In this document: positions 1,075-35,571 of the stretch, one piece after another | How positions within the stretch are numbered: position 1 is the stretch's first letter | How the letters are laid out: the number at the start of each line of letters is the position of its first letter | DNA from: Candidatus Woesearchaeota archaeon | GTDB lineage: Archaea > Nanobdellota > Nanobdellia > Woesearchaeales > ARS49 | NCBI GenBank assembly: GCA_018303245.1 | Contig: JAGVYM010000047.1 | Coordinates: 1-36,286 of the forward strand | DNA length: 36,286 nt | Direction: 5' to 3' | The notes under the pieces: generated by a model | What the model was told of the DNA's origin: nothing | The model's input: only the letters and a program-made list of their open reading frames with translations | The model's database searches: none | Made by a program: the position numbers and the translations under genes

Positions 1075-1700
1075 ATGAAAACATACGGTGGTTTATTTGA
1101 AATACTTATTTCGTTAGATAACCTCAAAGAGGCGTATAGAAAAGCAAAAAGGAGAAAAGAACACAAGGCATCAGTTCAGGAGTTTGAAAAGCATTGGCAG
1201 CTTTATCTTGTTCAGCTCCATCTTGAGTTGAAGACTAAAACGTATATTCCTCGAAAGCTCAAGACATTCATCTTACGGGATCCAAAACAAGAATTATCAG
1301 TGTGAGTGACTTTCGCGACAGGATTGTGCATCACGCATTGGTAAACATCTTGCAACCGATTTTTGAGCCACGATTTATGATAGTTACGCAAGCAGGAAAG
1401 GTAAGGGAACTGCGGCCGCACTTGAGCGCTTCGACACTTTCTTAAGAAAAGTAACAAAAAACGGAAAAGTGCGCCTGGCCTCAGAGCAGAACATTGGAGG
1501 TTTTGTATTTAAAGCAGACATTAAGAGTTATTTTGATAGTGTTGACCAAGTAATTCTAATTGAAATTATTGAAGAGCGTATTAATGATAAAGATATACTT
1601 TGGCTCATCGATCGAATTCTGCAAAATTATAATTCAGGCACTCCTGGGAAAGGGATACCTCTTGGAAACTGGACAATCGAATTTTTATACCCTCTTCTCA
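1075..1700 (+). pseudogene. reverse transcriptase (DGR/retron/group-II-like class), frameshifted and 3'-truncated
   Basis: RT N-terminal signature in three frames. Frame 1, 1075-1305: LFEILISLDNLKEAYRKAKRRKEHK...YIPRKLKTFILRDPKQ. Frame 3, from 1308: DFRDRIVHHALVNILQPIFEPRF. Frame 2, from 1376: YDSYASRKGKGTAAALERFDTFLRK...FKADIKSYFDSVD...GKGIPLGNWT. No YxDD motif or thumb follows. Confidence 0.75.
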
Positions 1701-1751
1701 GTTATGTATGTAAAGGTAAAACCACGCCATTTATCTTCAATATAGAAACAA

Positions 1752-2879
1752 ATGGAAGCAAATGAAGTAACTTGGAAAGAGAAGCCAAACGAATATTGCC
1801 ACTGGACAGCTGTGCGAACAGAGTATTTAACGGACTCGAGTAGATTAGTTTTCATGACAAACACGTATCTGGGACTTGCTCCTGAACTAGTGCTTGATAT
1901 TCATAGAACAGCGTTGATTCTTCGAAAAGAGAAAAAATTAGGTCAACGGAATATTTCACGTAAACTTTTTGAGAAATATGGCGTTTTAATTTCTGAAAGT
2001 ACAATTGCAGGTTGGCTCTATCAAGGAAATGTTCCTTATGCAAATTCAAGAACGCAGTTTAAACCTAAACCGATTCCGGCAAAGGATGTGCTGCACAAAC
2101 TCTACGTTGGTGAAGGGCAAAGCGCGAATAAGATTGGCGTGTTATTAGGAGTCTCCACAATAATTGTAATTAACTGGCTGAGACATTATTCTATTAGCCC
2201 ACGAACCCATTTGGAGTCCATGCAACTATTTGATGTAAAAAAAGCACTTAGAGAAAAAGCACGCATTATGCCCACCAAAGAATATTCCACGTTAACATCG
2301 GAAAAAGCTTATGTTCTGGAAGTTTTGTGCGGTGATGGTTATATTGACAAAGGAAGATTGCGTCTTGAAATTAGATACGACAAAGAGTTCGCAGAAGAAT
2401 TTAAGGACTGCATTGAAAAAATTTATGGAGGCGTTCACAAGGTTAATTACTACGCTGCGCGGAATACGTTTATAGTTGACATAAGCCGTGAAGTAATGTG
2501 TTCTGACCTTTTCAAATACGGTGTTTTTGATACGTGGAACTGGATTGTTCCCAAACAAATTCTAAACTCAAATGATGTTAACATTATGGGCAGTTTTGTA
2601 AAAGGTGTCTTTGATAGCGAAGGTCATGTTGAAAAATATGGAATAACGATGCTTACTGCAAGTAAGAATGGGGCAGATAACATGATAACGCTTCTTTCTC
2701 GCTTAGGAATAACTGCTCATAAATACAAGAGCAGGCAGTATGCGGTTATTTCGATAACTCATTGGGAGAATATGAAAAAGTTTTCAGATCTGGTCGGATT
2801 CAACATACGGAGAAAACAAACCGCTTTGGAGAAATCACTTAATGAACGAAAATATCACGTACAAGTCAGAACCAAATAA
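1752..2879 (+). CDS. LAGLIDADG-family homing endonuclease with N-terminal HTH repeats
   Basis: Two LAGLIDADG-type motifs (AYVLEVLCGDGY and GSFVKGVFDSEGHV) with the usual spacing. The N-terminal half has two HTH-like segments (ISESTIAGWLYQG; QSANKIGVLLGVSTIIVINWL). The true start codon is uncertain. Confidence 0.8.
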   Translation: MEANEVTWKEKPNEYCHWTAVRTEYLTDSSRLVFMTNTYLGLAPELVLDIHRTALILRKEKKLGQRNISRKLFEKYGVLISESTIAGWLYQGNVPYANSRTQFKPKPIPAKDVLHKLYVGEGQSANKIGVLLGVSTIIVINWLRHYSISPRTHLESMQLFDVKKALREKARIMPTKEYSTLTSEKAYVLEVLCGDGYIDKGRLRLEIRYDKEFAEEFKDCIEKIYGGVHKVNYYAARNTFIVDISREVMCSDLFKYGVFDTWNWIVPKQILNSNDVNIMGSFVKGVFDSEGHVEKYGITMLTASKNGADNMITLLSRLGITAHKYKSRQYAVISITHWENMKKFSDLVGFNIRRKQTALEKSLNERKYHVQVRTK

Positions 2880-4689
2880 AGATGAAGAATTAAACAATAT
2901 TCTGAATCCTTTGGTGAAAAAATGGTTCCAAGGTAAATTCAAGTCTTTTACACCCTCGCAGCAGTATGCAGTGATGGACGTGCATTCAAGGAGTAACATA
3001 CTAGTATCTGCTCCCACTGGCAGTGGAAAAACACTCACTGCCTTTCTTTCTGTTCTCAACGAACTTGTAGACTCTGCTGAAAAAGGAATATTGGAAAATA
3101 AGATTTATGCAGTTTACATATCTCCTTTGAAGGCATTGGCTTCCGATATCAAAGTCAACTTGATGACTCCACTACAAGAGATGGAACAACTCGCAGGCCG
3201 TTCTTTGGGAATCCGTGTTGGAGTCAGGACTGGAGACACTACTCAATCTGAAAAGAGTCAGATGCTTAAACACTGTCCACACATTCTTGTGACCACGCCC
3301 GAGTCGCTGAGTATTCTTCTCTCATCGATTAAATTCAAAGAGCACCTCAAAAATGTTGAGTGGTGTATCGTTGATGAAATTCACGCATTGGCGGAAAACA
3401 AGCGCGGGGTCCATCTCTCCTTGTCCCTCGAGCGATTGCAAAGACTTTCTGACCATCTCTGTCGCGTCGGTTTAAGCGCGACTGTATCTCCACTTGAAGA
3501 AATCGCAAGATACTTAGTTGGTCCGACCAGGCCGTGCACGATTGTTGACATTCAATTTCTCAAAGAGAGAGATTTCAAAGTAGTCTCGCCGGTCGACAGT
3601 CTGATTGACACGCCGCATGGAGATATCCATCACGCAATGTATGATGTTATTGACAAATTAATTCAGGAGCATAAGACTACGTTGATTTTTACCAACACGC
3701 GAAGCGCGACTGAGCGAGTGGTTGATCATCTCAAGAGTAGGTTTCCCAAAAAATACATTGGGAACATTGGCGCTCATCATGGGAGCATGAGCAAGCACGC
3801 CCGACTTGATATCGAGGAAAAATTGCGGAAGGGGGAGCTTAAGGCGGTTGTTTGCTCGACAAGTCTTGAACTTGGTATTGATATAGGATACATCGACCTG
3901 GTAATCTGTCTTGGTTCTCCAAAGTCAGTTGCGAGATTTTTGCAGCGTGCGGGCCGTAGCGGTCACAAATTGCATGAAACAGTAAAAGCAAGGGTTCTTG
4001 TCATGGATCGCGACGATCTAGTTGAGTGTGCGGTGTTATTAAAAAGCGCGATGGAAAAGAAGATCGACCGTGTCCACATTCCGACCAACGCACTTGATGT
4101 GCTTGCCCAGCAGATTATTGGGATGGCACTTGAGGAAGGTTGGGAAGAAAACGTGTTGTTTGATACAGTTCGTAAAAGTCATTGTTATGCGACATTGAAG
4201 CGCGATGACTTTAATCAAGTGTTAAGCTATCTTGCCGGCGAGTTTGTCGATTTGCAGGACCGCCATATTTATGCAAAAATCTGGCGTGAAGATGGAAAGA
4301 TTGGAAAAAGGGGGAAATTGAGCCGTGTTATATTCATGACGAATGTTGGCACGATTCCTGATGAGTCTTTTGTCACCGTGAAGATTGGGAACGAAAGTAT
4401 TGGCATGCTTGATGAGAGTTTTGTTGAGCGTATGAAGCCGGGTGACGTTTTTGTGCTTGGCGGCGAGACGTATATGTTCAAGTTCACGCGCGGAATGGTT
4501 GCCCAGGTCTCAGCATCGGCAAACCGACCTCCCACAGTCCCTTCCTGGATAAGTGAAATGCTTCCGTTGAGTTTCGACCTTGCGATGGAGATAGGACGTT
4601 TTCGAAGGTTGATGTTTGAGCGGTTGCGCAGCAGTGAGAACCGCAATGCAGTCATCAAGTTCATCAATGAATATTTGTATGTTCAATGA
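2842..4689 (+). CDS. lhr: Lhr-type DEAD/DEAH-box helicase, N-terminal part (helicase core plus wH/beta-barrel region)
   Basis: Motifs APTGSGKT, DEIH, SAT, and QRAGRSGH, then FMTNVGTIPDE and GDVFVLGGETYMF, as in Lhr-core proteins. Ends at a stop at 4687-4689, and homology continues in another frame. Confidence 0.85.
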   Translation: MNENITYKSEPNKDEELNNILNPLVKKWFQGKFKSFTPSQQYAVMDVHSRSNILVSAPTGSGKTLTAFLSVLNELVDSAEKGILENKIYAVYISPLKALASDIKVNLMTPLQEMEQLAGRSLGIRVGVRTGDTTQSEKSQMLKHCPHILVTTPESLSILLSSIKFKEHLKNVEWCIVDEIHALAENKRGVHLSLSLERLQRLSDHLCRVGLSATVSPLEEIARYLVGPTRPCTIVDIQFLKERDFKVVSPVDSLIDTPHGDIHHAMYDVIDKLIQEHKTTLIFTNTRSATERVVDHLKSRFPKKYIGNIGAHHGSMSKHARLDIEEKLRKGELKAVVCSTSLELGIDIGYIDLVICLGSPKSVARFLQRAGRSGHKLHETVKARVLVMDRDDLVECAVLLKSAMEKKIDRVHIPTNALDVLAQQIIGMALEEGWEENVLFDTVRKSHCYATLKRDDFNQVLSYLAGEFVDLQDRHIYAKIWREDGKIGKRGKLSRVIFMTNVGTIPDESFVTVKIGNESIGMLDESFVERMKPGDVFVLGGETYMFKFTRGMVAQVSASANRPPTVPSWISEMLPLSFDLAMEIGRFRRLMFERLRSSENRNAVIKFINEYLYVQ

Positions 4690-5797
4690 TTGTTTGAGTC
4701 GCGCTGTCGCGTTTGCCCTCTCGCGGACACAGCACCGGGATGTTGAACTTGGCATCAGCGATAATGGTTTTTACATCACCGGTTCAAAATTGCTTAGGCC
4801 AGTGAGCGCGTTCAAACTTCTGAAGGCAGACAAGCTTGACACGGTGATGCGCGCGGCGATTGAGAAAAGCGAGGTCTTGAAGCGCAGGTTCAGGCATTGT
4901 GCGACGCGCGCGTTCATGATTCTGCGCAATTATATGGGCCATCAGAAACGCGTCGGAAGGCAAGCGGTGAGTTCGATGATTCTGATGTCGCTCCTCAAGC
5001 GCATCGATGAGGATTTCACAATTTTGAAAGAGGCCAGGCGCGAGTGCTTGGAGGACGTGATGGATATTGGGAACGCGCGAAATGTAATTCAAAGAGTGGA
5101 AAAAGGAGATATAGTGATTACTGAAATTCAGAACACTATTCCTTCCCCGTTCGCGCTCAATCTTGCGTTGCAAGGCTACAGCGATATCCTTCGAATTGAA
5201 GATAAATATGAGTTCTTGCGCAGGATGCACGAGCAGATTCTTGCGAAAATCGGCGGCAGTCAACCTGAACTAATCAACGGCAAGGAGTATGTCCAGCGTT
5301 CGAAGGAGGCACGGGCAGAGTTCAAGGACCAGCTGCGCAGCGAAGTGGAATCCCTTTCAGTCTCAACGTTTATGAAGGCAGAGTTGCTTCGCATCGTGAA
5401 CGGTGAGCGTTCTTCGCTTGACCCTGGTGTTATTAATCTTTTGCAGGGCGTCGAAGCCTGGCCGCAAGAACTGCGTAAGTTTGCAGAAACAGTAAGGGGA
5501 GATCTCAAGAGTTCTGCGTTTTCGTACGAGGATTTCTGGAAAGAGGAGGAAGAGAAACTTTCCGAGTCAGAGGAAGAACAAAAGCGAGCGCTGTTTGATG
5601 AGTTTAATGATGGTGCAAAGAAACTGCGCGTCGATTCACAAATCCGTTACGATGTGTACAAGATGATTGCTGGCGACAAAGAGGGTTTCAGGCAGGAAAC
5701 GTTTCAGTGGCTCAAAGACAACTTTGCCAAAGGAGTTGCTCGCACCTGGAAGGACAGCATTGCAAAGTTTTTGCAGGGGAAGGCCCGGACGTTGTGA
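4616..5797 (+). CDS. lhr: Lhr C-terminal part (DEAD/H-associated domain) in a different frame, plus a K/E-rich tail
   Basis: NDCLSRAVAFALSRTQHRDVELGISDNGFYIT, RFRHCATRAFMILRNY, and PSPFALNL match the DEAD_assoc domain of Lhr. Homology starts near nt 4684. The part of the ORF upstream of that is probably not translated. Confidence 0.7.
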   Translation: MSGCAAVRTAMQSSSSSMNICMFNDCLSRAVAFALSRTQHRDVELGISDNGFYITGSKLLRPVSAFKLLKADKLDTVMRAAIEKSEVLKRRFRHCATRAFMILRNYMGHQKRVGRQAVSSMILMSLLKRIDEDFTILKEARRECLEDVMDIGNARNVIQRVEKGDIVITEIQNTIPSPFALNLALQGYSDILRIEDKYEFLRRMHEQILAKIGGSQPELINGKEYVQRSKEARAEFKDQLRSEVESLSVSTFMKAELLRIVNGERSSLDPGVINLLQGVEAWPQELRKFAETVRGDLKSSAFSYEDFWKEEEEKLSESEEEQKRALFDEFNDGAKKLRVDSQIRYDVYKMIAGDKEGFRQETFQWLKDNFAKGVARTWKDSIAKFLQGKARTL

Positions 5798-5808
5798 ACT
5801 GATGTCCA

Positions 5809-5816
5809 TTTTTTTT
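5809..5816 (+). terminator. T8 run, a likely archaeal terminator after lhr
   Basis: TTTTTTTT lies 12 nt after the stop codon at 5795-5797. Confidence 0.45.
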
Positions 5817-5873
5817 AATCACTTGACAATAATTGCAAAAGTTAAATAATGTGCTCCTTTCACCTCCTAGATT

Positions 5874-6100
5874 GCCGAGGCGGACATTTCGGTTGCCCTG
5901 AAAAGGGTGCGAGTACGACAGCCTCTGTTCGGTGTTCAACCAAACACGTGACGACTGGACTATAGCTCGTCAGCGTGCGTCTACACTGATTAAGCTCGTT
6001 GGTAGCGCGTAGGAGATAACCTGTCATCAATCCACACTCGAAGATGAGGATTCGATAGGGTGTCGGTACAGGCACTCTTACACCGAGTCCAGACCTCGGC
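5874..6100 (-). ncRNA. structured RNA candidate of about 227 nt, possibly a divergent SRP (7S) RNA; strand and identity are tentative
   Basis: The ends pair: GCCGAGG(5874-5880)/CCTCGGC(6094-6100), extended by GGAC/GTCC. Read on the minus strand, the 5' part (GCCGAGGUCUGGACUCGGUGUAAGAGUGCCUGUACCGACACCCUAUCGAAUCC) resembles the SRP Alu domain: a GGUG loop, GUGCCUGUA, and a CCC loop. There are two adjacent perfect hairpins in the middle. A/T-rich TATA-like boxes lie about 25-30 nt outside both ends. No convincing helix-8 (GNAR/AGCA) motif was seen. Confidence 0.4.
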
Positions 6101-6108
6101 TCTTTACC

Positions 6109-6297
6109 ATGCAAAAAAGGAAAAATTTGAGGAAACATTCTCGCAGGCCAAGTAGGAATGGCAAGGGTTCAAAGGTTCGTAAGCTGATTCTTCTTGCGAG
6201 AAGGAACGCGCGAGGGAAAAAGAGAGTGGTGAGTAAGAAGAGTGCGTCGCGTGTCAAGAAATCAGTCAGAAAAAGTGCCGGAAAGAAAAGGCGTTGA
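6109..6297 (+). CDS. very basic (K/R-rich) 62-aa protein, hypothetical
   Basis: ATG ORF, roughly 40 percent Lys/Arg (KKRVVSKKSASRVKKSVRKSAGKKRR). It ends 21 nt before the HIT gene, which has no TATA box of its own, suggesting co-transcription. It could also be non-coding. Confidence 0.35.
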   Translation: MQKRKNLRKHSRRPSRNGKGSKVRKLILLARRNARGKKRVVSKKSASRVKKSVRKSAGKKRR

Positions 6298-6318
6298 TTT
6301 GTTGACAGTTGACCACTT

Positions 6319-6750
6319 ATGAACTGTCCTTTTTGCACCATCGATAAAGGAAAAACAAAAAGTATCCAGGAAAAGGAGCACGTTCTTGTTGTCTTCAGCA
6401 ATCCGCGCTTAATGCCAGGTCATCTTTTGGTGATCCCCAAGCGTCACGTCGAGCGTCCTTCTGAATTAAACGCAGATGAACGTAAAGAATTGTTTGATAC
6501 TGCAATCGAGTTCCAAGAGAAAATTCTCACAAAATTCGCAAAAGGATGTGACATAAGTCAGCATTGCAGACCGTTCTTGCCCGAGAGCTGGACAAAAGTT
6601 AATCACGTGCATTTGCACCTGCGTCCGCGTGAGTTTGAGGATGAGTTGTATCAGAAGTCTCAAAAGGGTGAGAAAGATTTGTGGAAAGACTTACCCCAAG
6701 ATGAATTCAAGCGAGTTCTGCAAACACTTAATCTCACCAAACCTTTATAA
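6319..6750 (+). CDS. HIT (histidine triad) family protein
   Basis: N-terminal CPFC and the histidine triad NHVHLHLRP. Confidence 0.85.
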   Translation: MNCPFCTIDKGKTKSIQEKEHVLVVFSNPRLMPGHLLVIPKRHVERPSELNADERKELFDTAIEFQEKILTKFAKGCDISQHCRPFLPESWTKVNHVHLHLRPREFEDELYQKSQKGEKDLWKDLPQDEFKRVLQTLNLTKPL

Positions 6751-6752
6751 AT
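6744..6752 (+). promoter_or_regulatory. TATA box for proS (leaderless)
   Basis: TTTATAAAT is centred 25 nt upstream of the ATG at 6774 and overlaps the stop codon of the HIT gene. Confidence 0.5.
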
Positions 6753-6773
6753 TCCCTTCTTTCCTCTCGACAT

Positions 6774-8234
6774 ATGCCCAAGAAAGATGACGTTACGCAA
6801 GGAATCACTGTGAAAAAGGCAGATGATTGTTCTGAGTGGTATACGCAAGTCATTCAGAAAGCGGAGTTGGCTGAGTATACTGATGTTTCGGGCTGTATGA
6901 TTTTCCGTCCCCGTGTCTTCGCGATTTGGGAAAAGCTGCAAGCCTTTTTCGACGCAGAAATTAAAAAGCTCGGCGTCAAGAACGCATACTTCCCAATTTT
7001 TATTCCTGAACATCTTTTGATAAAAGAGAAAGAGCACGTTGAGGGTTTTGCTCCTGAAGTCGCGTGGGTGACGCAAGGGGGTAACTCGCCGTTGAACGAG
7101 CGGTTAGCAATTCGTCCAACGAGCGAGACCATCATGTATGATGCGTACGCGAAGTGGATTAGAAGCTATCGTGACTTGCCGCTCAAAATCAATCAATGGG
7201 TGAATGCCGTCCGCTGGGAGTTCAAGCATCCGGTTCCCTTCCTTCGAGGACGAGAATTCCTCTGGCAGGAAGGCCACACTGTGTTTGCGAAGAAAGCGGA
7301 TGCTGAAAAGGAAGTTCTCGACATATTGGAGCTTTACCGAAGAGTGTTCGAAGAGTGTCTTGCCCTTCCGGTCATCAAAGGAAAGAAGAGTGAGAACGAA
7401 AAGTTTGCGGGCGCTGATTATTCTACCTCAGTAGAAACCCTCACGCCAAGCGGCAAGGCGGTTCAGGCGGCGACAAGCCATCACCTAGGCCAGCGGTTCG
7501 CGAAGAGTTTTGGTATTGAATTCCTGGATGAGAACAGTCAGAAGTCAATTCCTTATCAAAACAGTTGGGGCTTCTCGACCCGTTCGATTGGCGCGATGAT
7601 TCTATTCCACGGCGACGACAAAGGGATTGTGATTCCACCAAAAGTCGCTCCGCTTCACGCAGTTGTCATCCCCATTGTGTTTGACAAAGACAAAGAGTTA
7701 GTCCTCAAAGAAGCAAAGAAAATCGCAGACTCACTCAAAAAAGCAGGAGTTTCAGTCGAGCTTGACGACCGTGATTCATACACTGCGGGCTGGAAGTTCA
7801 ATGAGTGGGAACTCAAAGGCGTTTGCCTGCGCATTGAAGTTGGCCCTAAAGATGTTGAGAAAAAGCAGGCTGTTGTGGTGCGCAGGGACACTGGCAAGAA
7901 GGAGTTTGTGAAAATCACAGACCTTGCAAAACACATCGAGTCTGAACTTGAAGCGATGCAAACTGATATGTTTACTAAAGCAAAGAAGTTCTTGACAGAA
8001 AACACAGTCCACGCAAAATCTTGGTCCGAGTTTGAAAAAGCGATCAAGGCCAAAAAGCTTATTGTCATGCTTTGGTGCTGCATAGAGAAGTGTGCACAAG
8101 ATATCAAGGAAAAGACGGAAGGTGCAAAGTGTTTGAACCTGCCTTTTGAAGAAAACAAAACAGCAACAAAAGACAAGTGTGTCCACTGCGGCAAACCCGC
8201 AAGTGCGGTTGCGTTGTTTGCCAAGTCATACTAA
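6774..8234 (+). CDS. proS: prolyl-tRNA synthetase, archaeal/eukaryal type
   Basis: Class II aaRS motifs (RPTSETIMY, FLRGREFLWQEGHT, SWGFSTRSIGAMILFHGDDKG), an anticodon-binding domain, and a C-terminal zinc-type domain ending in ...SY, typical of archaeal ProRS. Confidence 0.95.
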   Translation: MPKKDDVTQGITVKKADDCSEWYTQVIQKAELAEYTDVSGCMIFRPRVFAIWEKLQAFFDAEIKKLGVKNAYFPIFIPEHLLIKEKEHVEGFAPEVAWVTQGGNSPLNERLAIRPTSETIMYDAYAKWIRSYRDLPLKINQWVNAVRWEFKHPVPFLRGREFLWQEGHTVFAKKADAEKEVLDILELYRRVFEECLALPVIKGKKSENEKFAGADYSTSVETLTPSGKAVQAATSHHLGQRFAKSFGIEFLDENSQKSIPYQNSWGFSTRSIGAMILFHGDDKGIVIPPKVAPLHAVVIPIVFDKDKELVLKEAKKIADSLKKAGVSVELDDRDSYTAGWKFNEWELKGVCLRIEVGPKDVEKKQAVVVRRDTGKKEFVKITDLAKHIESELEAMQTDMFTKAKKFLTENTVHAKSWSEFEKAIKAKKLIVMLWCCIEKCAQDIKEKTEGAKCLNLPFEENKTATKDKCVHCGKPASAVALFAKSY

Positions 8235-23023: not shown

Positions 23024-23346
23024 AAGTCATTATTAATAATTCACAAACTCGTAGCATTTATAAATAAAAAATCCGAATTCTTAACAGCCGACACTTAACA
23101 TCCACAGGTTGAACAATACGTTAAGAAAAGAGGTATTTGCTGAACACTACATTTCGTGAACATTCGCTATTAAGAAAACCACACTATGTTTTTAACAAAG
23201 CTCTTGCGGTCACAAGTGGACGACACAAGCCGACAAGCTCCCTAAAGTATGTTCAAACCTCAAATGTAAAAGCCCATACTGGGACTCCAAGAGAAAAGAA
23301 AGGAAAATCTAAAAGAATCCCTAAGTTTGTTACGTTTGGTTATACA

Positions 23347-23441
23347 GCCTCTGACGGGAATTGCACCCGCGACCTCCACCTTTTTGTTGACGTTTTGTTC
23401 TTGATACCAAGGTGGCGCAATGGCTACTATGCTACAGAGGC
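23347..23441 (-). tRNA. tRNA-Thr (anticodon GGU) with a 23-nt intron; atypical D and T loops
   Basis: Minus strand: GCCUCUG-UA-GCAU-AGUAGCCA-UUGC-G-CCACC-UUGGUA[intron 23382-23404]A-GGUGG-AGGUC-GCGGG-UGCAAUU-CCCGU-CAGAGGC, discriminator U. TATA-like TTTTTAAAGG (23468-23477) lies about 30 nt upstream. The T loop has G at position 55 and the D loop lacks GG. Confidence 0.65.
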
Positions 23442-27384: not shown

Positions 27385-27894
27385 TCACTTCAAAAAATCT
27401 GATTTATGCTCGTAGAGCCATCGATAGCACACGTCGAGCTGCGGGTGAATCTTCTCGCCGTTTGTTACCAGTTTGAATGCGTCATCTAAATCTATGAATT
27501 CTCCGCTGGCAACCTCACCATCCGCGAAATTGAATCCATCTTCTGCGAAAGCAACAAAGAGTTCTATGAATCTTTTGTGCCCATCTGAAGTAAAGAGCAG
27601 AGAATTCATTTTGTGGACTGGAACTTTTAACCCGAGTTCTTCACCCATTTCGCGTTTGGCTGCATCTTCGTATGATTCTCTTGATTTGACATGTCCTCCT
27701 GCGCTTGTGCAGTAGTAGCCTGGAAGGAATGATTTTGTTTCTGCACGTTTCTGGAAATAAACTTGCTTTGTTTTTGGATGTATTACAAAAACGTGCACGA
27801 TGCGATGATTAAGTTTTTTCACGTAAATTTCCTCCTGTGTTGTTTTTCCAGTCACTTCGTTTTTGTCGTTAACGATGTCCATATATTCGCCCAT
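27385..27894 (-). CDS. NUDIX hydrolase
   Basis: Nudix box GGHVKSRESYEDAAKREMGEELGL. GGAGG-like SD upstream. Confidence 0.85.
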   Translation of the reverse strand: MGEYMDIVNDKNEVTGKTTQEEIYVKKLNHRIVHVFVIHPKTKQVYFQKRAETKSFLPGYYCTSAGGHVKSRESYEDAAKREMGEELGLKVPVHKMNSLLFTSDGHKRFIELFVAFAEDGFNFADGEVASGEFIDLDDAFKLVTNGEKIHPQLDVCYRWLYEHKSDFLK

Positions 27895-30793: not shown

Positions 30794-31120
30794 TTATTTT
30801 TTCTGTACTTTCCAGCTGCAAAAGGTGGGGAGTTTTGAATATATTTTGTATCTTACTAGGTCAATTTTCTTTGCGTTTGGAGTGGCTTTAGCGTCAACGT
30901 AGTCAAGAATTTCGAACTTGTTTTTGATAATTGTTCCTATGACTGTTTGCAAAGTTCTGTGAACTTTGATGACTGGTTGTCCGCTCCAGTTTTCGTACCT
31001 AGTGCCTTCTTTGAAGTAATCTCCAAACACCCTTCCTTTATCACGAGAATGACCAAGGAGCCGATATTCTTTTCCCGCAATCTTTACTTTTTCGCGTATG
31101 GAAAAGAGTGGATTTGGCAT
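30794..31120 (-). CDS. hypothetical protein
   Basis: 108-aa ATG ORF. No recognised motif. Its 5' end overlaps the ProRS-fragment ORF on the opposite strand. Confidence 0.45.
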   Translation of the reverse strand: MPNPLFSIREKVKIAGKEYRLLGHSRDKGRVFGDYFKEGTRYENWSGQPVIKVHRTLQTVIGTIIKNKFEILDYVDAKATPNAKKIDLVRYKIYSKLPTFCSWKVQKK

Positions 31121-31490
31121 TCAACGATGTTTTCATGCAACGATGGAAATCTACAAGGACGAACACGGCATTAACTTTCCAGCAAGCATAAGACCATTTG
31201 ATGTTTCAGTCATTGTAATGAATCCAGAAGATGATAATCAAATGAGAAAGGGAGTTCGTTGTTATGACGCATTAATTGGTACTGGAAAGAAAACAGTGCT
31301 AGATGATCGTCATGGAAAAACACTAAAAGAAAAAGTAGAACTTTCTGACTTTTATGGAATTCCAGTAAAATTAGTGATCGGCAGAAAAGAAGCACAAACT
31401 GATTCTGTTACGATTAAACAAAGAGAAAATGAAGAAGGAAAACTAGTTACTTTTGAACCACAAATAGTGGAGGCATATCTCAATGGATAA
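31098..31490 (+). pseudogene. stand-alone class II aaRS anticodon-binding domain, resembling the C-terminus of bacterial-type ProRS
   Basis: GFGIQRCFHATMEIYKDEHGINFPASIRPFDVSVIVMN ... VLDDRHGKTLKEKVELSDFYGIPVKLVIGRKE follows the pattern GIGVSRL..AIIE..D..GI.WP..IAPF.V.I...N ... LDDR...G.K..D..LIGIP. The catalytic domain is absent upstream. Confidence 0.55.
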
Positions 31491-31914
31491 TTGTCTTTTC
31501 TGCGGAATTGCAGATAAAAAAATTCCAGGTTACGTGATTTACGAAGACGATAAACATATTGCCGTTCTTGATATTTATCCTGCCGTCAGAGGGCAGTCGT
31601 TAGTATTACCCAAGAAACATTTTGGAAGTTATGTTTTTGAAATGGGAAAAGATGATTATCTTGCATTGATGATTGCTTCTAGAAACGTGGCCAAGTTAAT
31701 CGATGAAAAACTGGGGGCTTTAAGGACGTGCATGGTTATGGAAGGAATGGAAGTAGATCACGCCCATATTAAGTTGTATCCAATTCACGAAGTCCTCACA
31801 AACATCGCTCCTGAAACAATTGACTTGAACAAGTATCCGGGATACATTAGCACAAAACACGGAGAGCGAATGAGCAATTCTGACTTGGAAATAATACTCG
31901 CAAGATTTAAATAA
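31483..31914 (+). CDS. HIT family protein (HinT-like) with a variant triad
   Basis: CLFCGI N-terminus. The triad region reads DHAHIKLYP, i.e. HxHxK instead of HxHxH. There is an 8-nt overlap with the upstream ORF. Confidence 0.8.
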   Translation: MDNCLFCGIADKKIPGYVIYEDDKHIAVLDIYPAVRGQSLVLPKKHFGSYVFEMGKDDYLALMIASRNVAKLIDEKLGALRTCMVMEGMEVDHAHIKLYPIHEVLTNIAPETIDLNKYPGYISTKHGERMSNSDLEIILARFK

Positions 31915-31935
31915 GTACTAGTAACCCTCTTTCAT

Positions 31936-32967
31936 ATGATAAAACCCAAAAAAATATCTCGCGGAGACACGATTGCTCTACTCGCGCCTTCAGGTGGACT
32001 TGGTGGACTTTTTCCTCACAGAGTGGATAGTGCGAAAAGAGCGTTGGAAAAACTTGGTTTTAAGGTTAAAGAGTTTCCGACTGCTCGAAAGTTTCAAGAT
32101 GGCAAGGCAGGAACTCCTGATGAGCGTATAAAAGACTTGCATGATGCATTCAGCGATCCGTCAATTAAGGCAATTATGTGCACTATTGGGGGCTTGTGCT
32201 CAAACGAGATAATTGGCAGGCTTGATTATGAGTTAATAAAAAAGAACCCAAAAATGTTTTGCGGGTACTCTGATATTAGTATCTTGCATCACGCAATTGC
32301 CAGAAGAACAGGGCTTGTTACGTTTTACGGTCCTGCAGCAATGACTCAATTTGGCGAGTTTCCAGAACCTTTACCGTATACTGTTGAACATTTTCTGAAA
32401 GCAACGACTTCAACAAAACCAGTTGGTACGATTAAGCCTTCTGAAAAGTGGACTGATGAAACTAGTTTGGACTGGTCAAAAAAGCTTGACTTGACAAGGC
32501 CACGCAATCTTTACGAAAATGAAGGGCACATTTGGTTAAAGGAAGGAAAAGCAACAGCGCCAATTATTGGAGGTTGTCTAAGTTCAATCATGCAACTTAA
32601 AGGAACGCCTTACGATTTTGACTCTACTGGAAAGATTTTATTCGTTGAAACCTGCGAAGGTCAAGATTTCACCAAAGGAGAGCCTTTAGGCTATGCTGAT
32701 GCTCACATTATGGACTTACGCAATGCAGGAGTGTTTGATAAAATTAAAGGACTTGTTGTAGGAAGACCTTTTGGCTACTCTGCAGAAGATCGCAAGAAAT
32801 TCGTGGACATCATTGCCAAACATGTTGCAAGTTACAATTTCCCTGTTCTGGTAAACGTAAATGTCGGTCATGCTGACCCTATCATCACAATTCCACTCGG
32901 TGTAACCGTAACGCTAGACTCAGCTCAAAACAGGTTTTCAATTGATGAAAGCGGCGTTTCAGAATAA
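31936..32967 (+). CDS. S66 family LD-carboxypeptidase (LdcA/MccF-like)
   Basis: GDTIALLAPSG, the catalytic Ser context GYSDISILH, and the C-terminal GHADPIITIPLGV. Confidence 0.85.
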   Translation: MIKPKKISRGDTIALLAPSGGLGGLFPHRVDSAKRALEKLGFKVKEFPTARKFQDGKAGTPDERIKDLHDAFSDPSIKAIMCTIGGLCSNEIIGRLDYELIKKNPKMFCGYSDISILHHAIARRTGLVTFYGPAAMTQFGEFPEPLPYTVEHFLKATTSTKPVGTIKPSEKWTDETSLDWSKKLDLTRPRNLYENEGHIWLKEGKATAPIIGGCLSSIMQLKGTPYDFDSTGKILFVETCEGQDFTKGEPLGYADAHIMDLRNAGVFDKIKGLVVGRPFGYSAEDRKKFVDIIAKHVASYNFPVLVNVNVGHADPIITIPLGVTVTLDSAQNRFSIDESGVSE

Positions 32968-33688
32968 TTTATTGAATATTCTTAATAATCAATGGCAAGG
33001 TATGGACATGAATTTTGGAAGGCTACAAGGATACGTTCCTATGGAGAAGAATATTGTGTATTTCAGAAGAGGTAATGATGAACTTTCTCTTAACATTACT
33101 AATGCTTGTCCAAATGCTTGTGTATTTTGTATTAGAGACTATGACCTGGGATGGGGTGTTTCGAATCTTTATATGGATCGCGATCCCGATATAAAAGAAA
33201 TACTGGGTGCGTTTGATCAAGAAGCACAATGGATTTCGGAAGAAGGAACATCTATAAAACGAGTAAAAATATGCGGTTACGGTGAACCAATACTGCGATT
33301 TAATGATCTCGCGTCCATCGTAACACACGTTAAGAAAAAATGTCCCAAGACAACAATACAATTAACAACAACAAGGTGGCCTTATTTTAGATTCATCTCT
33401 CAAGATACAGCACCCCTGCGAGAGCTTAAAGCAGCAGGTCTTGATATTATCTATCTTAGTTTGCACGCTCTTGATGAAGAACAATACAAAAGACTTGTAA
33501 GGCCAGGTATAACAACGTATGATACAAATGCATTTTCTGATAGCTTAAGATTTGCTAGGGCAACTCGTGAAGCAGGATTTCAGTTAAAATTAGGGTTTAT
33601 CAGAGTGGGCGCAGTAGATGAGTTGGGAATTAAAGCACTTGCGGCTGAATTGGATGCTGAATATGAATTGCGGGAGTTTGAAAAATAA
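32942..33688 (+). CDS. radical SAM protein (small TatD-associated-type family)
   Basis: CPNACVFC (CxxxCxxC) in LNITNACPNACVFCIRD, followed by ICGYGEPILRF. An alternative start at 33002 would remove the overlap with the peptidase gene. Confidence 0.8.
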   Translation: MMKAAFQNNLLNILNNQWQGMDMNFGRLQGYVPMEKNIVYFRRGNDELSLNITNACPNACVFCIRDYDLGWGVSNLYMDRDPDIKEILGAFDQEAQWISEEGTSIKRVKICGYGEPILRFNDLASIVTHVKKKCPKTTIQLTTTRWPYFRFISQDTAPLRELKAAGLDIIYLSLHALDEEQYKRLVRPGITTYDTNAFSDSLRFARATREAGFQLKLGFIRVGAVDELGIKALAAELDAEYELREFEK

Positions 33689-34449
33689 TGATAAACTCAC
33701 TACAAGAAAAGTTCACTAAGGCAAGAAGAACTCTTTTCGCCAGAATTTTTGAAACAGCAAATTTAGACCGCATTCATCCTGTGAATTCCTTTGAAAAGAT
33801 AGAATTAGTAACGAGAGATATGACTGCGAAGCTTGGCATTCCTCTAACTGAAGAAGAAGATACTTTGGCTAGGCAAAGAACAAATTCACTTACAACCATA
33901 TCACCCAGATACGACGTTATATTTTTCATATCTGGGAACCCCACTCATTATGGCCATATTTTCACCGCTGAAGAGTCCGCACACCAGACAAATTCAATAG
34001 TTCATTTATTTGTGACTAAAGGTCATTATAAAAAAAGAGGTTTACCTGAACATAGTGATAGACTGAACTTGGCAATGAGACTGGCCACGGGTTCAATGAA
34101 CGTTTCTGTTGAGAATCACGAGTTTGAAGGTGAACGAATTGCGGGCCTGGAATATTATTCATCAAAATTTAGAAATTTTGCTCAATTGATAGGGTCTGAT
34201 GTTTTAGGAAGGTATTCTCAAGAAGATAGAGGCGTTTTTGCTTACCCGTACATATTATTTGTAAGATCTCCCGATGACCTTGAGACTTACCCTGATATTG
34301 TGAGAAGATTTGTGCACTTAGAAATTGTGAGGAGTGACATAAGGCCTATTAGCAGCACATCAATAAGAAAAAGGCTTATTTCTGACAAAATCTATCCACC
34401 ACTTTTAAGACAACACGTTATGCCTTATTTGGAAGCAGGCGTTCAGTAA
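33688..34449 (+). CDS. NadD/NMNAT-like nucleotidyltransferase
   Basis: (H/T)xGH motif in ISGNPTHYGH and ISSTSIRKRL (ISSTxxR). TAATG overlaps with both neighbouring genes. Confidence 0.7.
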   Translation: MINSLQEKFTKARRTLFARIFETANLDRIHPVNSFEKIELVTRDMTAKLGIPLTEEEDTLARQRTNSLTTISPRYDVIFFISGNPTHYGHIFTAEESAHQTNSIVHLFVTKGHYKKRGLPEHSDRLNLAMRLATGSMNVSVENHEFEGERIAGLEYYSSKFRNFAQLIGSDVLGRYSQEDRGVFAYPYILFVRSPDDLETYPDIVRRFVHLEIVRSDIRPISSTSIRKRLISDKIYPPLLRQHVMPYLEAGVQ

Positions 34450-34925
34450 TGGATCGCGCGCAGCTTCCTTTTCGTTCGAACACTGAAGGCTACCTCCTTG
34501 ATAGTGTTGGAAATGTTCTTGCGCAGGTGCAAGATGGTATTCTTGTTTTTCCAGGAGGTGGCGTGGAAAAGGACGAAGCTATCCTTGATGTAATTACAAG
34601 GGAGACTTTTGAGGAAACAGGCGTTGTTATTGAACACGTTCGCTTGCTTGGAACAATACGTTTTGTTTGGAGTGAGTCTTGGGCAAGAACAGAAAAGCAA
34701 AAATTGCGTTTTGAACAGTTTGAGGGTGAAGAAATGCACTTTTTCACCGGGCGAATAAAAGAGTTTAGAGAGCCAATTGGTGAAGACAAGTGGATTGGTG
34801 AGTTATTAATGCCTGTGAGCAAGGCCATTGAGTTTCTTGAGTCTCAAAAGCCATTCAAAAGTGAGGCTTTGTATAGAGAGAAACAACTCGGTTTTCTGAA
34901 AACAATACTGGGGAGATTTCATTAG
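34449..34925 (+). CDS. NUDIX hydrolase
   Basis: Nudix box GGGVEKDEAILDVITRETFEETGV. Confidence 0.8.
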   Translation: MDRAQLPFRSNTEGYLLDSVGNVLAQVQDGILVFPGGGVEKDEAILDVITRETFEETGVVIEHVRLLGTIRFVWSESWARTEKQKLRFEQFEGEEMHFFTGRIKEFREPIGEDKWIGELLMPVSKAIEFLESQKPFKSEALYREKQLGFLKTILGRFH

Positions 34926-34989: not shown

Positions 34990-35571
34990 ATGACAACCAA
35001 GTTAGATGCAGAATACAGAAAAGAAGGATTCCACTGGGGACTAAATCCCTCTTCCGCTGTAAAAAACATTTTGCATCTGAAATCACAAGGAACTGTTCTT
35101 GATATTGGTGTGGGAGAAGGAAGAAATGCTCTTTTCCTAGCGCAAAACGGTTTTGCGGTCACGGGAATTGATATATCTGAAGAAGGAATAAAGAAATTCA
35201 CACAGGAAGCCCAAAAACGCGGCCTGCACGTACACGGCATAGTCGCTGATATCACGACAGCAGAGTTAGAAAAATATGATGTTATTTTAGCAATAAACTT
35301 GCTTCAATTCCTTACGAAAGAGAAAGCATATGCAACCATCGAAAAAATGAAAAAACACGCAGAACCGGATGGAATAAACATCATCCAAGTTTTTCTAAAG
35401 GAAAACCAGGGGAGTTTTCCCTATTTATTCTCAAAAGATGAACTAAAAACACTTTATTCTGATTGGGACATTCTCCTTTACAAAGAATACGAAACACCTA
35501 AAGAAAAACATGGGAACGGACCTTGGCACCATCACTATGTTGCAGAAATAATAACAAAAAGAAAAAATTAG
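34990..35571 (+). CDS. class I SAM-dependent methyltransferase (TehB-like)
   Basis: VLDIGVGEGRNALFLAQNGFAVTGIDIS (motif I plus an acidic post-I residue). TATA-like TTTAATAAA lies about 25 nt upstream of the ATG. Confidence 0.85.
   Translation: MTTKLDAEYRKEGFHWGLNPSSAVKNILHLKSQGTVLDIGVGEGRNALFLAQNGFAVTGIDISEEGIKKFTQEAQKRGLHVHGIVADITTAELEKYDVILAINLLQFLTKEKAYATIEKMKKHAEPDGINIIQVFLKENQGSFPYLFSKDELKTLYSDWDILLYKEYETPKEKHGNGPWHHHYVAEIITKRKN

Follow-up and report, generated by a model that had tools for sequence, protein, structure and literature searches.

Enzymatic immunity to microcin C is ascribed, in the passages of PMC8323819 that treat it, to three mechanisms, namely MccF, MccH and the RimL-like MccE. 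Enzymes of the MccH clade of the HIT family hydrolyse the phosphoramide bond of processed microcin C, and the clade is defined by the motif ExxxxxHxHxKxx, in which the Lys is essential, together with the loss of the N-terminal catalytic His (PMC7157772). The agrocin 84 cluster, as far as the passages of PMC8323819 on it go, comprises an aminoacyl-tRNA synthetase (aaRS)-type adenylation enzyme (AgnA), a remotely prolyl-tRNA synthetase (ProRS)-like protein (AgnC1) and S-adenosylmethionine (SAM)-dependent enzymes. The tunicamycin cluster includes the radical SAM enzyme TunB, the glycosyltransferase TunD, the N-deacetylase TunE, the methyltransferase TunM and the small pyrophosphatase TunN (PMC6965331, PMC6105854). 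Here, we compare with these systems a string of six genes in a 36,286-nt stretch of DNA (the window), which corresponds to positions 1-36,286 of contig JAGVYM010000047.1 of Candidatus Woesearchaeota archaeon (assembly GCA_018303245.1); positions without a contig name refer to it. The host is a groundwater archaeon with a small genome (0.95 Mb in 71 contigs). Based on our results, the six-gene string is probably a composite of two independently conserved, patchy accessory modules that lie end to end in this lineage: a cassette remnant with an orphan MccH-type/MccF-type pair (31098-32967), and a variant of a radical SAM (rSAM)-Nudix operon (33002-34925). Read from its sequence, the locus is predicted to be a microcin C/agrocin-like system that has decayed to its immunity part, beside a minimal variant of an uncharacterised rSAM-Nudix cassette.

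The original prediction, made from the letters of the window, had suggested that the six genes form one operon for one pathway, in which an aminoacyl- or peptidyl-nucleotide, or else a modified dinucleotide, is made, altered or detoxified. In such a pathway, the rSAM, NadD-like and Nudix proteins would build a modified adenylate or dinucleotide, and the HIT and S66 proteins would process it or confer immunity. Its description of the layout was correct. Six open reading frames (ORFs) on the same strand lie at 31098-31490 (ProRS-like), 31483-31914 (HIT), 31936-32967 (S66), 32942/33002-33688 (rSAM), 33688-34449 (NadD-like) and 34449-34925 (Nudix), followed by a TehB-like gene at 34990-35571. The first two share an 8-nt overlap, ATGGATAA at 31483-31490, a gap of 21 nt precedes 31936, and TAATG overlaps join the rSAM and NadD-like genes (33686-33690) and the NadD-like and Nudix genes (34447-34451). 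Pfam and NCBIfam confirmed the domain calls as well. The identical gene order is found in at least eight independent metagenome assemblies, and the arrangement is therefore no assembly chimera.

A single pathway is made attractive by the co-directional genes and their tight junctions, by the origin of every product in a nucleotide-handling family, and by HIT and S66 proteins of types that detoxify aminoacyl-nucleotides. The comparison of gene neighbourhoods speaks against it. In none of the 39 loci that we compared (15 for rSAM, 20 for S66 and 4 for HIT) do the two modules lie next to each other. No HIT, S66, ProRS-like or NadD-like homolog occurs within 6-8 kb in the 15 rSAM loci, and no member of the rSAM subfamily is present in the 400 other genomes of our phylum sample, 62 of which are S66-positive. 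Conversely, only three of the 12 rSAM-carrying genomes have an S66 gene, and in none of the three does it fall in the flanking sequence retrieved with the rSAM gene. In addition, the intact form of the first module terminates at S66 in both places where we found it (see below), and a separate TATA-like element precedes the rSAM gene. Judged from an alignment to 42 homologs, the rSAM gene starts at the ATG at 33002, which leaves a 34-nt spacer (32968-33001, +) after the S66 stop codon; in the sequence of this spacer the TATA-like TTTATTGAATATT can be read 22-34 nt upstream of the rSAM ATG, and comparable elements occur at similar distance 5' of most rSAM orthologs. As the promoter element of the rSAM gene, TTTATTGAATATT is suggestive only; the second module probably has its own promoter. 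Taken together, these data make a single six-gene pathway quite unlikely. What survives of the proposal is the chemistry predicted for HIT and S66, the synteny of the ProRS-like, HIT and S66 genes, and the co-occurrence of rSAM and Nudix. The original prediction had also proposed to check whether the rSAM and NadD-like genes keep company with HIT, S66 and Nudix genes in other genomes: the rSAM gene does so with Nudix but not with HIT or S66, and the NadD-like gene has no syntenic counterpart anywhere. A lack of synteny elsewhere, which the original prediction had named as the observation that would count against it, holds for the whole six-gene set and for neither of its halves.

The junctions themselves, although real, carry less weight than had been given to them. 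The host genome is about 90% coding, 37% of its same-strand neighbours overlap or abut, 50% lie no more than 25 nt apart, and it contains eight tight runs of at least six genes. Since tight junctions are the genomic norm, tight coupling alone weakly supports shared function. The same figures could be taken to mean that the six genes are functionally unrelated and packed by genome streamlining alone, which would leave the modules meaningless. We consider this highly improbable: the ProRS-like/HIT/S66 and rSAM/Nudix sub-syntenies are kept across families and habitats, with translational overlaps, and both sets consist of patchy accessory genes rather than of the housekeeping backbone. A "tightly coupled operon" of an ultra-compact DPANN genome can be a mosaic of unrelated accessory cassettes, and cross-lineage synteny is needed besides junction tightness.

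In the first module, the S66 serine peptidase (31936-32967, +; PF02016, 126 bits; PF17676, 91 bits) is clearly assigned by similarity to the MccF type and not to the LdcA type, as had been anticipated. It scores 150-203 bits against MccF and MccF-like PDB chains versus 47-72 bits against LdcA chains, and reaches 94 bits with the NCBIfam LdcA equivalog, for which the cutoff is 378. In a residue-level alignment to the MccF-like structure 5usd, Ser112 (GYSD), Glu238 and His312 (GHxxP) occupy the catalytic positions. Trp172 in SEKWTDE aligns with SETWSDD of the Bacillus anthracis MccF-like protein and is a candidate for the counterpart of W186, the adenine-stacking Trp in the catalytic loop of Escherichia coli MccF. 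S66 genes were found in 63 of the 401 genomes of the phylum sample, and orthologs at 50-66% identity to the one in the window occur in 12 other genomes of the phylum.

The HIT hydrolase (31483-31914, +; Pfam HIT PF01230, 32.8 bits, cutoff 21.5) carries the MccH-clade signature, the motif E87-GMEVD-H93-A-H95-I-K97-LY corresponding to ExxxxxHxHxKxx with the third His replaced by Lys. The pattern E-x5-HxHxK is present in all 66 full-length HIT homologs. The N-terminal catalytic His (H39 in E. coli HinT) is missing, as judged from a by-eye alignment of AVRGQ38SLVLP with SAPGHTLVVP in the canonical paralog of the same genome (contig C36). On these grounds an MccH-type activity is predicted for this protein, and the expectation of aminoacyl-nucleotide chemistry in the original prediction is supported by this motif together with the MccF-type S66. 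Bacterial members of this HIT clade stand by themselves among transposase genes, which is often the setting of stand-alone resistance genes. A PADLOC match of the HIT protein to ThsC-type proteins reached only 21.8 bits, and we rejected an assignment to a defence system. The host genome holds further HIT-family genes (contig C6, 6243-6719; C36, 7416-7928; C8, 23769-24943); its complement includes a second MccH-type E-x5-HxHxK protein (39% identical to the HIT of the window), the canonical HxHxH protein, and two tandem HIT-like genes with degenerate triads.

In sequence, the pair resembles the immunity enzymes of the mcc clusters of E. coli and Hyalangium minutum (PMC7157772, PMC8323819) at several points. 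The S66 protein is of the MccF type with Ser, His and Glu in place, and the HIT protein shares with MccH (PMC7157772) both the ExxxxxHxHxK motif and the lost N-terminal His, at which position it has Gln and MccH has Phe. Like stand-alone MccF and MccH homologs, the two genes occur without biosynthetic genes. The third mechanism has a counterpart in a related locus, where a RimL-type GNAT acetyltransferase, comparable to the C-terminal domain of MccE, immediately follows S66, and the MccF, MccH and RimL enzyme classes all occur around aaRS paralogs. Unlike the mcc clusters, the window contains no MccA peptide, MccB ThiF-like adenylyltransferase or MccC exporter; moreover, its intact relatives pair these enzymes with aaRS paralogs, and the host is archaeal.

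These aaRS paralogs became apparent in a census of the flanks of 20 S66 matches. In nine of them, aaRS-like genes lie directly upstream of S66, including cases in which the S66 copy is only about 35% identical to that of the window. The upstream genes encode a paralog of the asparaginyl-tRNA synthetase (AsnRS) core of about 378 aa, which has no anticodon-binding domain, and/or a divergent ProRS-like protein of 372-396 aa, or else full-length proteins of the aspartyl-tRNA synthetase (AspRS)/AsnRS type; class I SAM methyltransferases usually accompany them. A complete seven-gene cassette, its members identified by Pfam and NCBIfam and arranged as AsnRS-like, NIF3/DUF34, methyltransferase, ProRS, ProRS-like (396 aa), MccH-type HIT and MccF-type S66, was found in a second groundwater genome, G178 (L057, 1168-8059), and on a marine archaeal contig (L080, 1-6466). 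Both copies end at S66, and in both the ProRS-like, HIT and S66 genes follow one another with the 8-nt overlap seen in the window. The extra ProRS of the cassette is a near-canonical bacterial-type enzyme (408 aa, 557 bits), and G178 additionally has an archaeal ProRS of its own. The HIT and S66 proteins of the window are 82.5% and 66% identical, respectively, to those of the G178 cassette. Housekeeping proteins are less similar between the two organisms: the ATP-dependent DNA ligase encoded by the host genome is 39% identical to that of G178, and the archaeal-type ProRS, encoded in full at 6774-8234 of the window, 57%. The closer relationship of the cassette proteins implies horizontal transfer of the cassette. 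At another locus (L059, contig C23 of G072, 1341-8099), three AspRS/AsnRS-like genes, one of them a core-only paralog, and two S66 genes lie within about 7 kb and form an unusually dense array.

In domain content, the intact cassette is also comparable to the agrocin 84 cluster (agn, on pAgK84) and to agn-like clusters as the relevant passages of PMC8323819 describe it: the aaRS-type enzyme would match AgnA, the ProRS-like protein AgnC1, and SAM enzymes are present in both. The extra aaRS of the cassette could be an immune copy of the target, in the manner of the leucyl-tRNA synthetase AgnB2 in the same passages. Unlike the cassette, agn is not described in those passages as encoding MccF or MccH, and unlike agn, the window itself keeps none of the putative biosynthetic genes. 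In a search of plasmids, the AsnRS-core paralog was about 28% identical, a family-level similarity only, to plasmid-borne aaRS-related genes; Agrobacterium plasmids, not further identified, were among the matches. A close homology to agn can therefore not be claimed, and the resemblance is one of domain content. Our search of the literature brought up no work that links aaRS paralogs to MccF in DPANN. With microcin C and agrocin 84 as models, the most likely role of the intact cassette would be to make an aminoacyl-adenylate-like compound and to protect the cell from it.

The window holds a remnant, and not a complete member, of this aaRS-paralog/MccF cassette of DPANN and the candidate phyla radiation (CPR). 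Its first gene (31098-31490, +; about 130 aa, Pfam HGTP_anticodon) is a 5'-truncated remnant of the ProRS-like class II aaRS paralog. It aligns with positions 439-552 of the 559 of the NCBIfam bacterial ProRS model (76.6 bits, cutoff 558), and shares 64% identity, in an undisrupted frame, with residues 271-396 of the 396-aa ProRS-like paralog of G178. Homology begins at 31110 (residue 271 of the intact protein), and the last ~126 residues hold no more than the anticodon-binding domain and the final part of motif 3. In the window and elsewhere in the host genome, we found no bacterial-type ProRS class II core (motifs 1-3). Of the ProRS-like protein the genome contains only residues 271-396, and it has neither the AsnRS-core paralog nor the cassette methyltransferases.

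The original prediction had described this gene as a stand-alone anticodon-binding domain of a bacterial-type ProRS. The ascription to a bacterial-type ProRS-like C-terminus was right, and the gene is a truncated remnant instead of a conserved small protein. One could nevertheless imagine that the 130-aa domain works by itself, for example in binding tRNA(Pro) or as a partner subunit of HIT and S66, given that its ORF is intact in at least eight assemblies, that its frame is undisrupted relative to the tail of its ortholog, and that it is translationally coupled to the HIT gene. Such a role is unlikely in view of what the relatives encode. The intact cassettes specify the full 372-396-aa protein and never a free domain. 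In a second truncated copy (L081, 4547-6467), a 153-aa ORF precedes intact HIT and S66 genes and the group adjoins a DNA methyltransferase gene; the last ~65 residues of this ORF are ProRS-like and are fused to an unrelated SWIM-finger peptide, so that its breakpoint differs from that of the window. Furthermore, the 5' end of the remnant in the window overlaps a divergent ORF by 23 nt, and no TATA-like element lies at promoter distance. The second truncation at a different breakpoint and the intact full-length relatives argue that the "stand-alone" domain is deletion debris, and we read the remnant in this way. The divergent ORF in question (30794-31120, -; 108 aa) lies where the 5' part of the ProRS-like gene is missing and marks the flank of the breakpoint; it has no match in Pfam, NCBIfam, PADLOC or PHROGs and no paralog in the host genome.

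Based on these observations, a probable course of events is that a deletion removed the synthetase genes in this lineage, reaching as far as residue 271 of the ProRS-like protein, and that the tail was probably retained only for the sake of the HIT start, which overlaps it. The remainder would be an orphan immunity or detoxification pair acting on an aminoacyl-nucleotide, in which HIT would break the P-N or acyl-phosphate link and S66 the amide bond. The aaRS-paralog/MccF cassette, which is widespread in ultra-small archaea and bacteria, has decayed from its 5' end with retention of HIT and S66 twice independently. This selective retention is expected if both enzymes serve immunity or detoxification that is still useful against the compounds of neighbours. 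MccH-type HIT proteins have been characterised in bacteria, and the presence of the same active-site signature in an archaeon allows a concrete and cheap biochemical test; the predicted MccH/MccF-type activity is the most testable point of this locus.

The second module begins with a small radical SAM enzyme (33002-33688, +; 228 aa, Pfam Radical_SAM) of a rare DPANN/CPR subfamily. This subfamily comprises about 58 protein clusters at 39-60% identity from Nanoarchaeota, Pacearchaeota, Woesearchaeota and a few Patescibacteria, well apart from the ~30%-identical TatD-linked proteins of Firmicutes. The cysteines C36, C40 and C43 form the CX3CX2C motif, and C91 is likewise invariant in the alignment of homologs. 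An earlier designation as a TatD-associated type is accurate insofar as TIGR04038 is the best match, but the score of 93.7 bits lies below the cutoff of 129.7, as does that with TIGR04100 (91.4 bits, cutoff 262). With the proteins of these two families the enzyme shares a small single-domain architecture and the CX3CX2C motif, and TIGR04038 proteins are also paired with a nucleotide or nucleic-acid hydrolase. It differs from them in being only ~30% identical and in its recurring partners, which are Nudix and thymidylate kinase (Tmk)-like proteins. No TatD was seen among the called neighbours of the four Pfam-annotated rSAM loci or in the recurrent gene clusters of rSAM loci, the one-off neighbours elsewhere not having been scanned. 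Our literature search returned nothing relevant on TIGR04038 or TatD-linked rSAM proteins.

For the comparison of rSAM neighbourhoods we obtained 17 loci, which represent 15 distinct ones (two pairs are the same genomic place), and clustered their ORFs. A Nudix gene linked to the rSAM gene is present in 12 of the 15 and a Tmk-like paralog in 13. Two gene orders are conserved, mostly with 4-nt overlaps. In type A, a divergent regulator with an AbrB domain is followed by rSAM, (methyltransferase), a family 2 glycosyltransferase (GT2), Tmk-like, PIG-L, WbqC and Nudix; in type B, the order is rSAM, Nudix, polyprenyl synthase and Tmk-like. The common core therefore consists of rSAM, Nudix and a protein of the thymidylate-kinase family. 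The latter scores 36-49 bits, and the genomes concerned also encode a genuine Tmk (95-118 bits), which led us to reject a role as housekeeping Tmk for this paralog. The host genome of the window lacks the Tmk-like paralog, GT2, PIG-L and WbqC, and by comparison of sequences module 2 (33002-34925) appears to be a local, minimal variant of this rare rSAM-Nudix operon. The divergent regulator of type A is a protein of about 306 aa with an AbrB/MazE-type N-terminal domain (for example L017, 6949-7869, -). Four paralogs of it are encoded in the host genome (contigs C51, C29, C40 and C52), although the type-A cassette is absent there.

Described systems offer points of comparison for the rSAM protein and its relatives. 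The AlphaFold2 model of the enzyme (predicted local distance difference test score, pLDDT, 92.9) matched only the generic rSAM core. Among the best fold matches were NifB (TM ~0.62) and viperin-like structures (TM 0.62-0.64; root-mean-square deviation 3.0-3.4 Å), with PylB, BioB and SuiB about equal, and the fold search, limited to generic cores, led to no functional assignment. In the viperin-CMPK2 pair, a radical SAM enzyme acts on an NTP that a kinase of the thymidylate-kinase family supplies. The relatives resemble this pair in that their rSAM gene is operonic with a dedicated Tmk-family paralog, and PADLOC gave a weak pVip match to the rSAM of the window. Unlike viperin, the protein has no C-terminal NTP-binding extension and falls ~60 residues short in length (228 aa, versus 250-290 aa in the structures), and the window contains no kinase; there was no match to the NCBIfam viperin model. 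As the PADLOC match amounted to 18 bits and covered only residues 30-119, the cluster-binding region, assignment to a defence system was rejected. The long rSAM cassette of the relatives also resembles the tunicamycin cluster in its mix of enzyme classes and in translational coupling, a likeness of domain content only; unlike that cluster, the window has just rSAM, Nudix and NadD-like genes, and its rSAM protein has 228 aa versus 337 aa in TunB. In a tentative model, which we hold with low confidence, the rSAM enzyme would modify a nucleotide-linked substrate, the kinase or nucleotidyltransferase would set the nucleotide-activation state of this substrate, and the Nudix protein would cleave a pyrophosphate of the substrate or product.

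The Nudix hydrolase (34449-34925, +; PF00293, 39 bits) has an intact Nudix box, G36-GVEKD-E-AILDVIT-RE-T-F-EE-T-G-V, which matches GX5EX7REUXEEXGU. In clustering, it falls together with the rSAM-linked Nudix proteins of 11 further loci, and it is the best match of its genome to the profile of these proteins (36.5 bits versus 26.4 and 23.9), and its orthology to the rSAM-linked Nudix proteins of other DPANN loci is probable. A second Nudix gene of the window (27385-27894, -) clusters with a 175-aa protein that adjoins one rSAM locus (L018) and that resembles type-1 isopentenyl-diphosphate isomerase rather than a nucleotide pyrophosphatase.

Between rSAM and Nudix, in the place where other loci couple these two genes directly, the window has an orphan NadD-like nucleotidyltransferase gene (33688-34449, +), which is TAATG-coupled at both ends. 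Its product has 253 aa with an N-terminal extension of ~75 aa, scores 19.6 bits with PF01467 (cutoff 21) and 31.3 bits with TIGR00482, short of the NadD cutoff of 112.45, and contains both characteristic motifs, PTH87YGH90 and ISSTSIR227. It was absent from 60 relatives. Among 5.8 billion clusters no word-level homolog was found other than the query itself, and an exhaustive HMMER scan of 1.84 billion cluster representatives yielded one weak relative (P0122, E = 4.5e-7). A search of PDB sequences gave no significant match, and a single-sequence AlphaFold2 model had a pLDDT of 32.

The most ordinary explanation for this pair of genes would be that they serve NAD salvage, as a nicotinamide mononucleotide (NMN) adenylyltransferase (NMNAT) and an ADP-ribose or NADH pyrophosphatase comparable to bifunctional NadM-Nudix, and that the rSAM gene beside them is unrelated. 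The NadD-like protein is indeed the only PF01467 member of the genome, its HxGH and ISSTxxR motifs are those of NadD, and a weak match to NMNAT was seen in PHROGs; the adjacency to Nudix with translational coupling recalls NadM-Nudix, whose models match the Nudix protein weakly in their Nudix half (E = 0.004-0.006). We nevertheless regard the NAD pair as rather doubtful. Unlike NadD, the protein of the window stays far below the family cutoff and carries the long N-terminal extension, and it has virtually no homologs, an uncommon situation among housekeeping enzymes. The Nudix protein belongs with rSAM-linked Nudix proteins from loci that lack an NMNAT, and the insertion with 4-nt overlaps on both sides, where others join rSAM to Nudix, also speaks against a salvage pair that is merely adjacent. 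Finally, we detected no NadE, nicotinate phosphoribosyltransferase (NAPRTase) or NadM in the host genome, nor any recognisable NAD synthesis besides this gene; NadM is patchy in relatives, many of which have no NMNAT at all. The lack of these three enzymes places the NadD-like gene outside the canonical route from nicotinic acid mononucleotide to NAD. It may still have a role in NMN salvage. In several relatives (contigs G039:C47, G006:C4, G040:C22 and G038:C27), NadE adjoins a NadM-like NMNAT.

Several points weigh against the composition of the locus from two independent modules, or against the roles that we predict for them. Read-through from S66 into rSAM across the 34-nt spacer is possible, and as all six products plausibly handle nucleotides, a functional link gained after the fusion is possible too. 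The ORF of the ProRS-like remnant, free of stop codons at 64% identity, could still encode a functional stand-alone domain. The MccH and MccF assignments rest on motif and similarity, and HIT proteins of this clade, which are found widely (in cyanobacteria, for example), may serve primarily in a different role. The orthology of the Nudix protein rests on weak scores (36.5 bits). One could go further and propose that, after the loss of the synthetases, the rSAM, NadD-like and Nudix genes were recruited beside the MccH/MccF pair as a new synthetase-independent route to, or defence against, an rSAM-modified adenylate or dinucleotide, in which the NadD-like protein would perform the adenylyl transfer that the aaRS paralogs perform in the ancestral cassette. 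We attach little probability to such a functional fusion. A related but weaker reading would see in the rSAM/Nudix/Tmk-like cassette a new archaeal nucleotide-modifying system on viperin-like logic. Under the two-module composition that we prefer, the most obscure elements are the chemistry of the rSAM enzyme and the orphan NadD-like protein, and the latter, like the rSAM/Nudix/Tmk-like cassette, may merit enzymology.

The gene that follows the six-gene string encodes a TehB-like class I SAM methyltransferase (34990-35571, +; Pfam TehB, 93 bits). As had been noted before, it has a TATA-like element of its own: TTTAATAA lies 25-32 nt upstream of its ATG, within an intergenic gap of 64 nt. Its candidacy as the methyltransferase of the cassette was rejected, since it scores 33.7 bits with the profile of the cassette methyltransferases versus 54-68 bits for four other genes of the host genome, and it is probably not part of either module. 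Rfam detected no RNA family within the six-gene region, the repeats and marks of mobility around 28-36 kb were limited to short repeats at chance level, and the flanking ORFs without assigned function had no match in PHROGs. On a sister contig of the same population, an IS200-type Y1 transposase gene (L005, 9529-9960) lies ~2.5 kb past the 3' end of the window, which suggests that the neighbourhood is recombinationally active. Elsewhere in the window, an ORF with a LAGLIDADG domain (1752-2879) overlaps the start of an Lhr-like helicase (2842-5797). The helicase appears split into ORFs 2842-4689 and 4616-5797, an arrangement that could be related to a homing endonuclease or intein or reflect a frameshift. 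A 96-nt tRNA at 23346-23441 (-) was found by Rfam and missed by ARAGORN, and presumably contains an intron.

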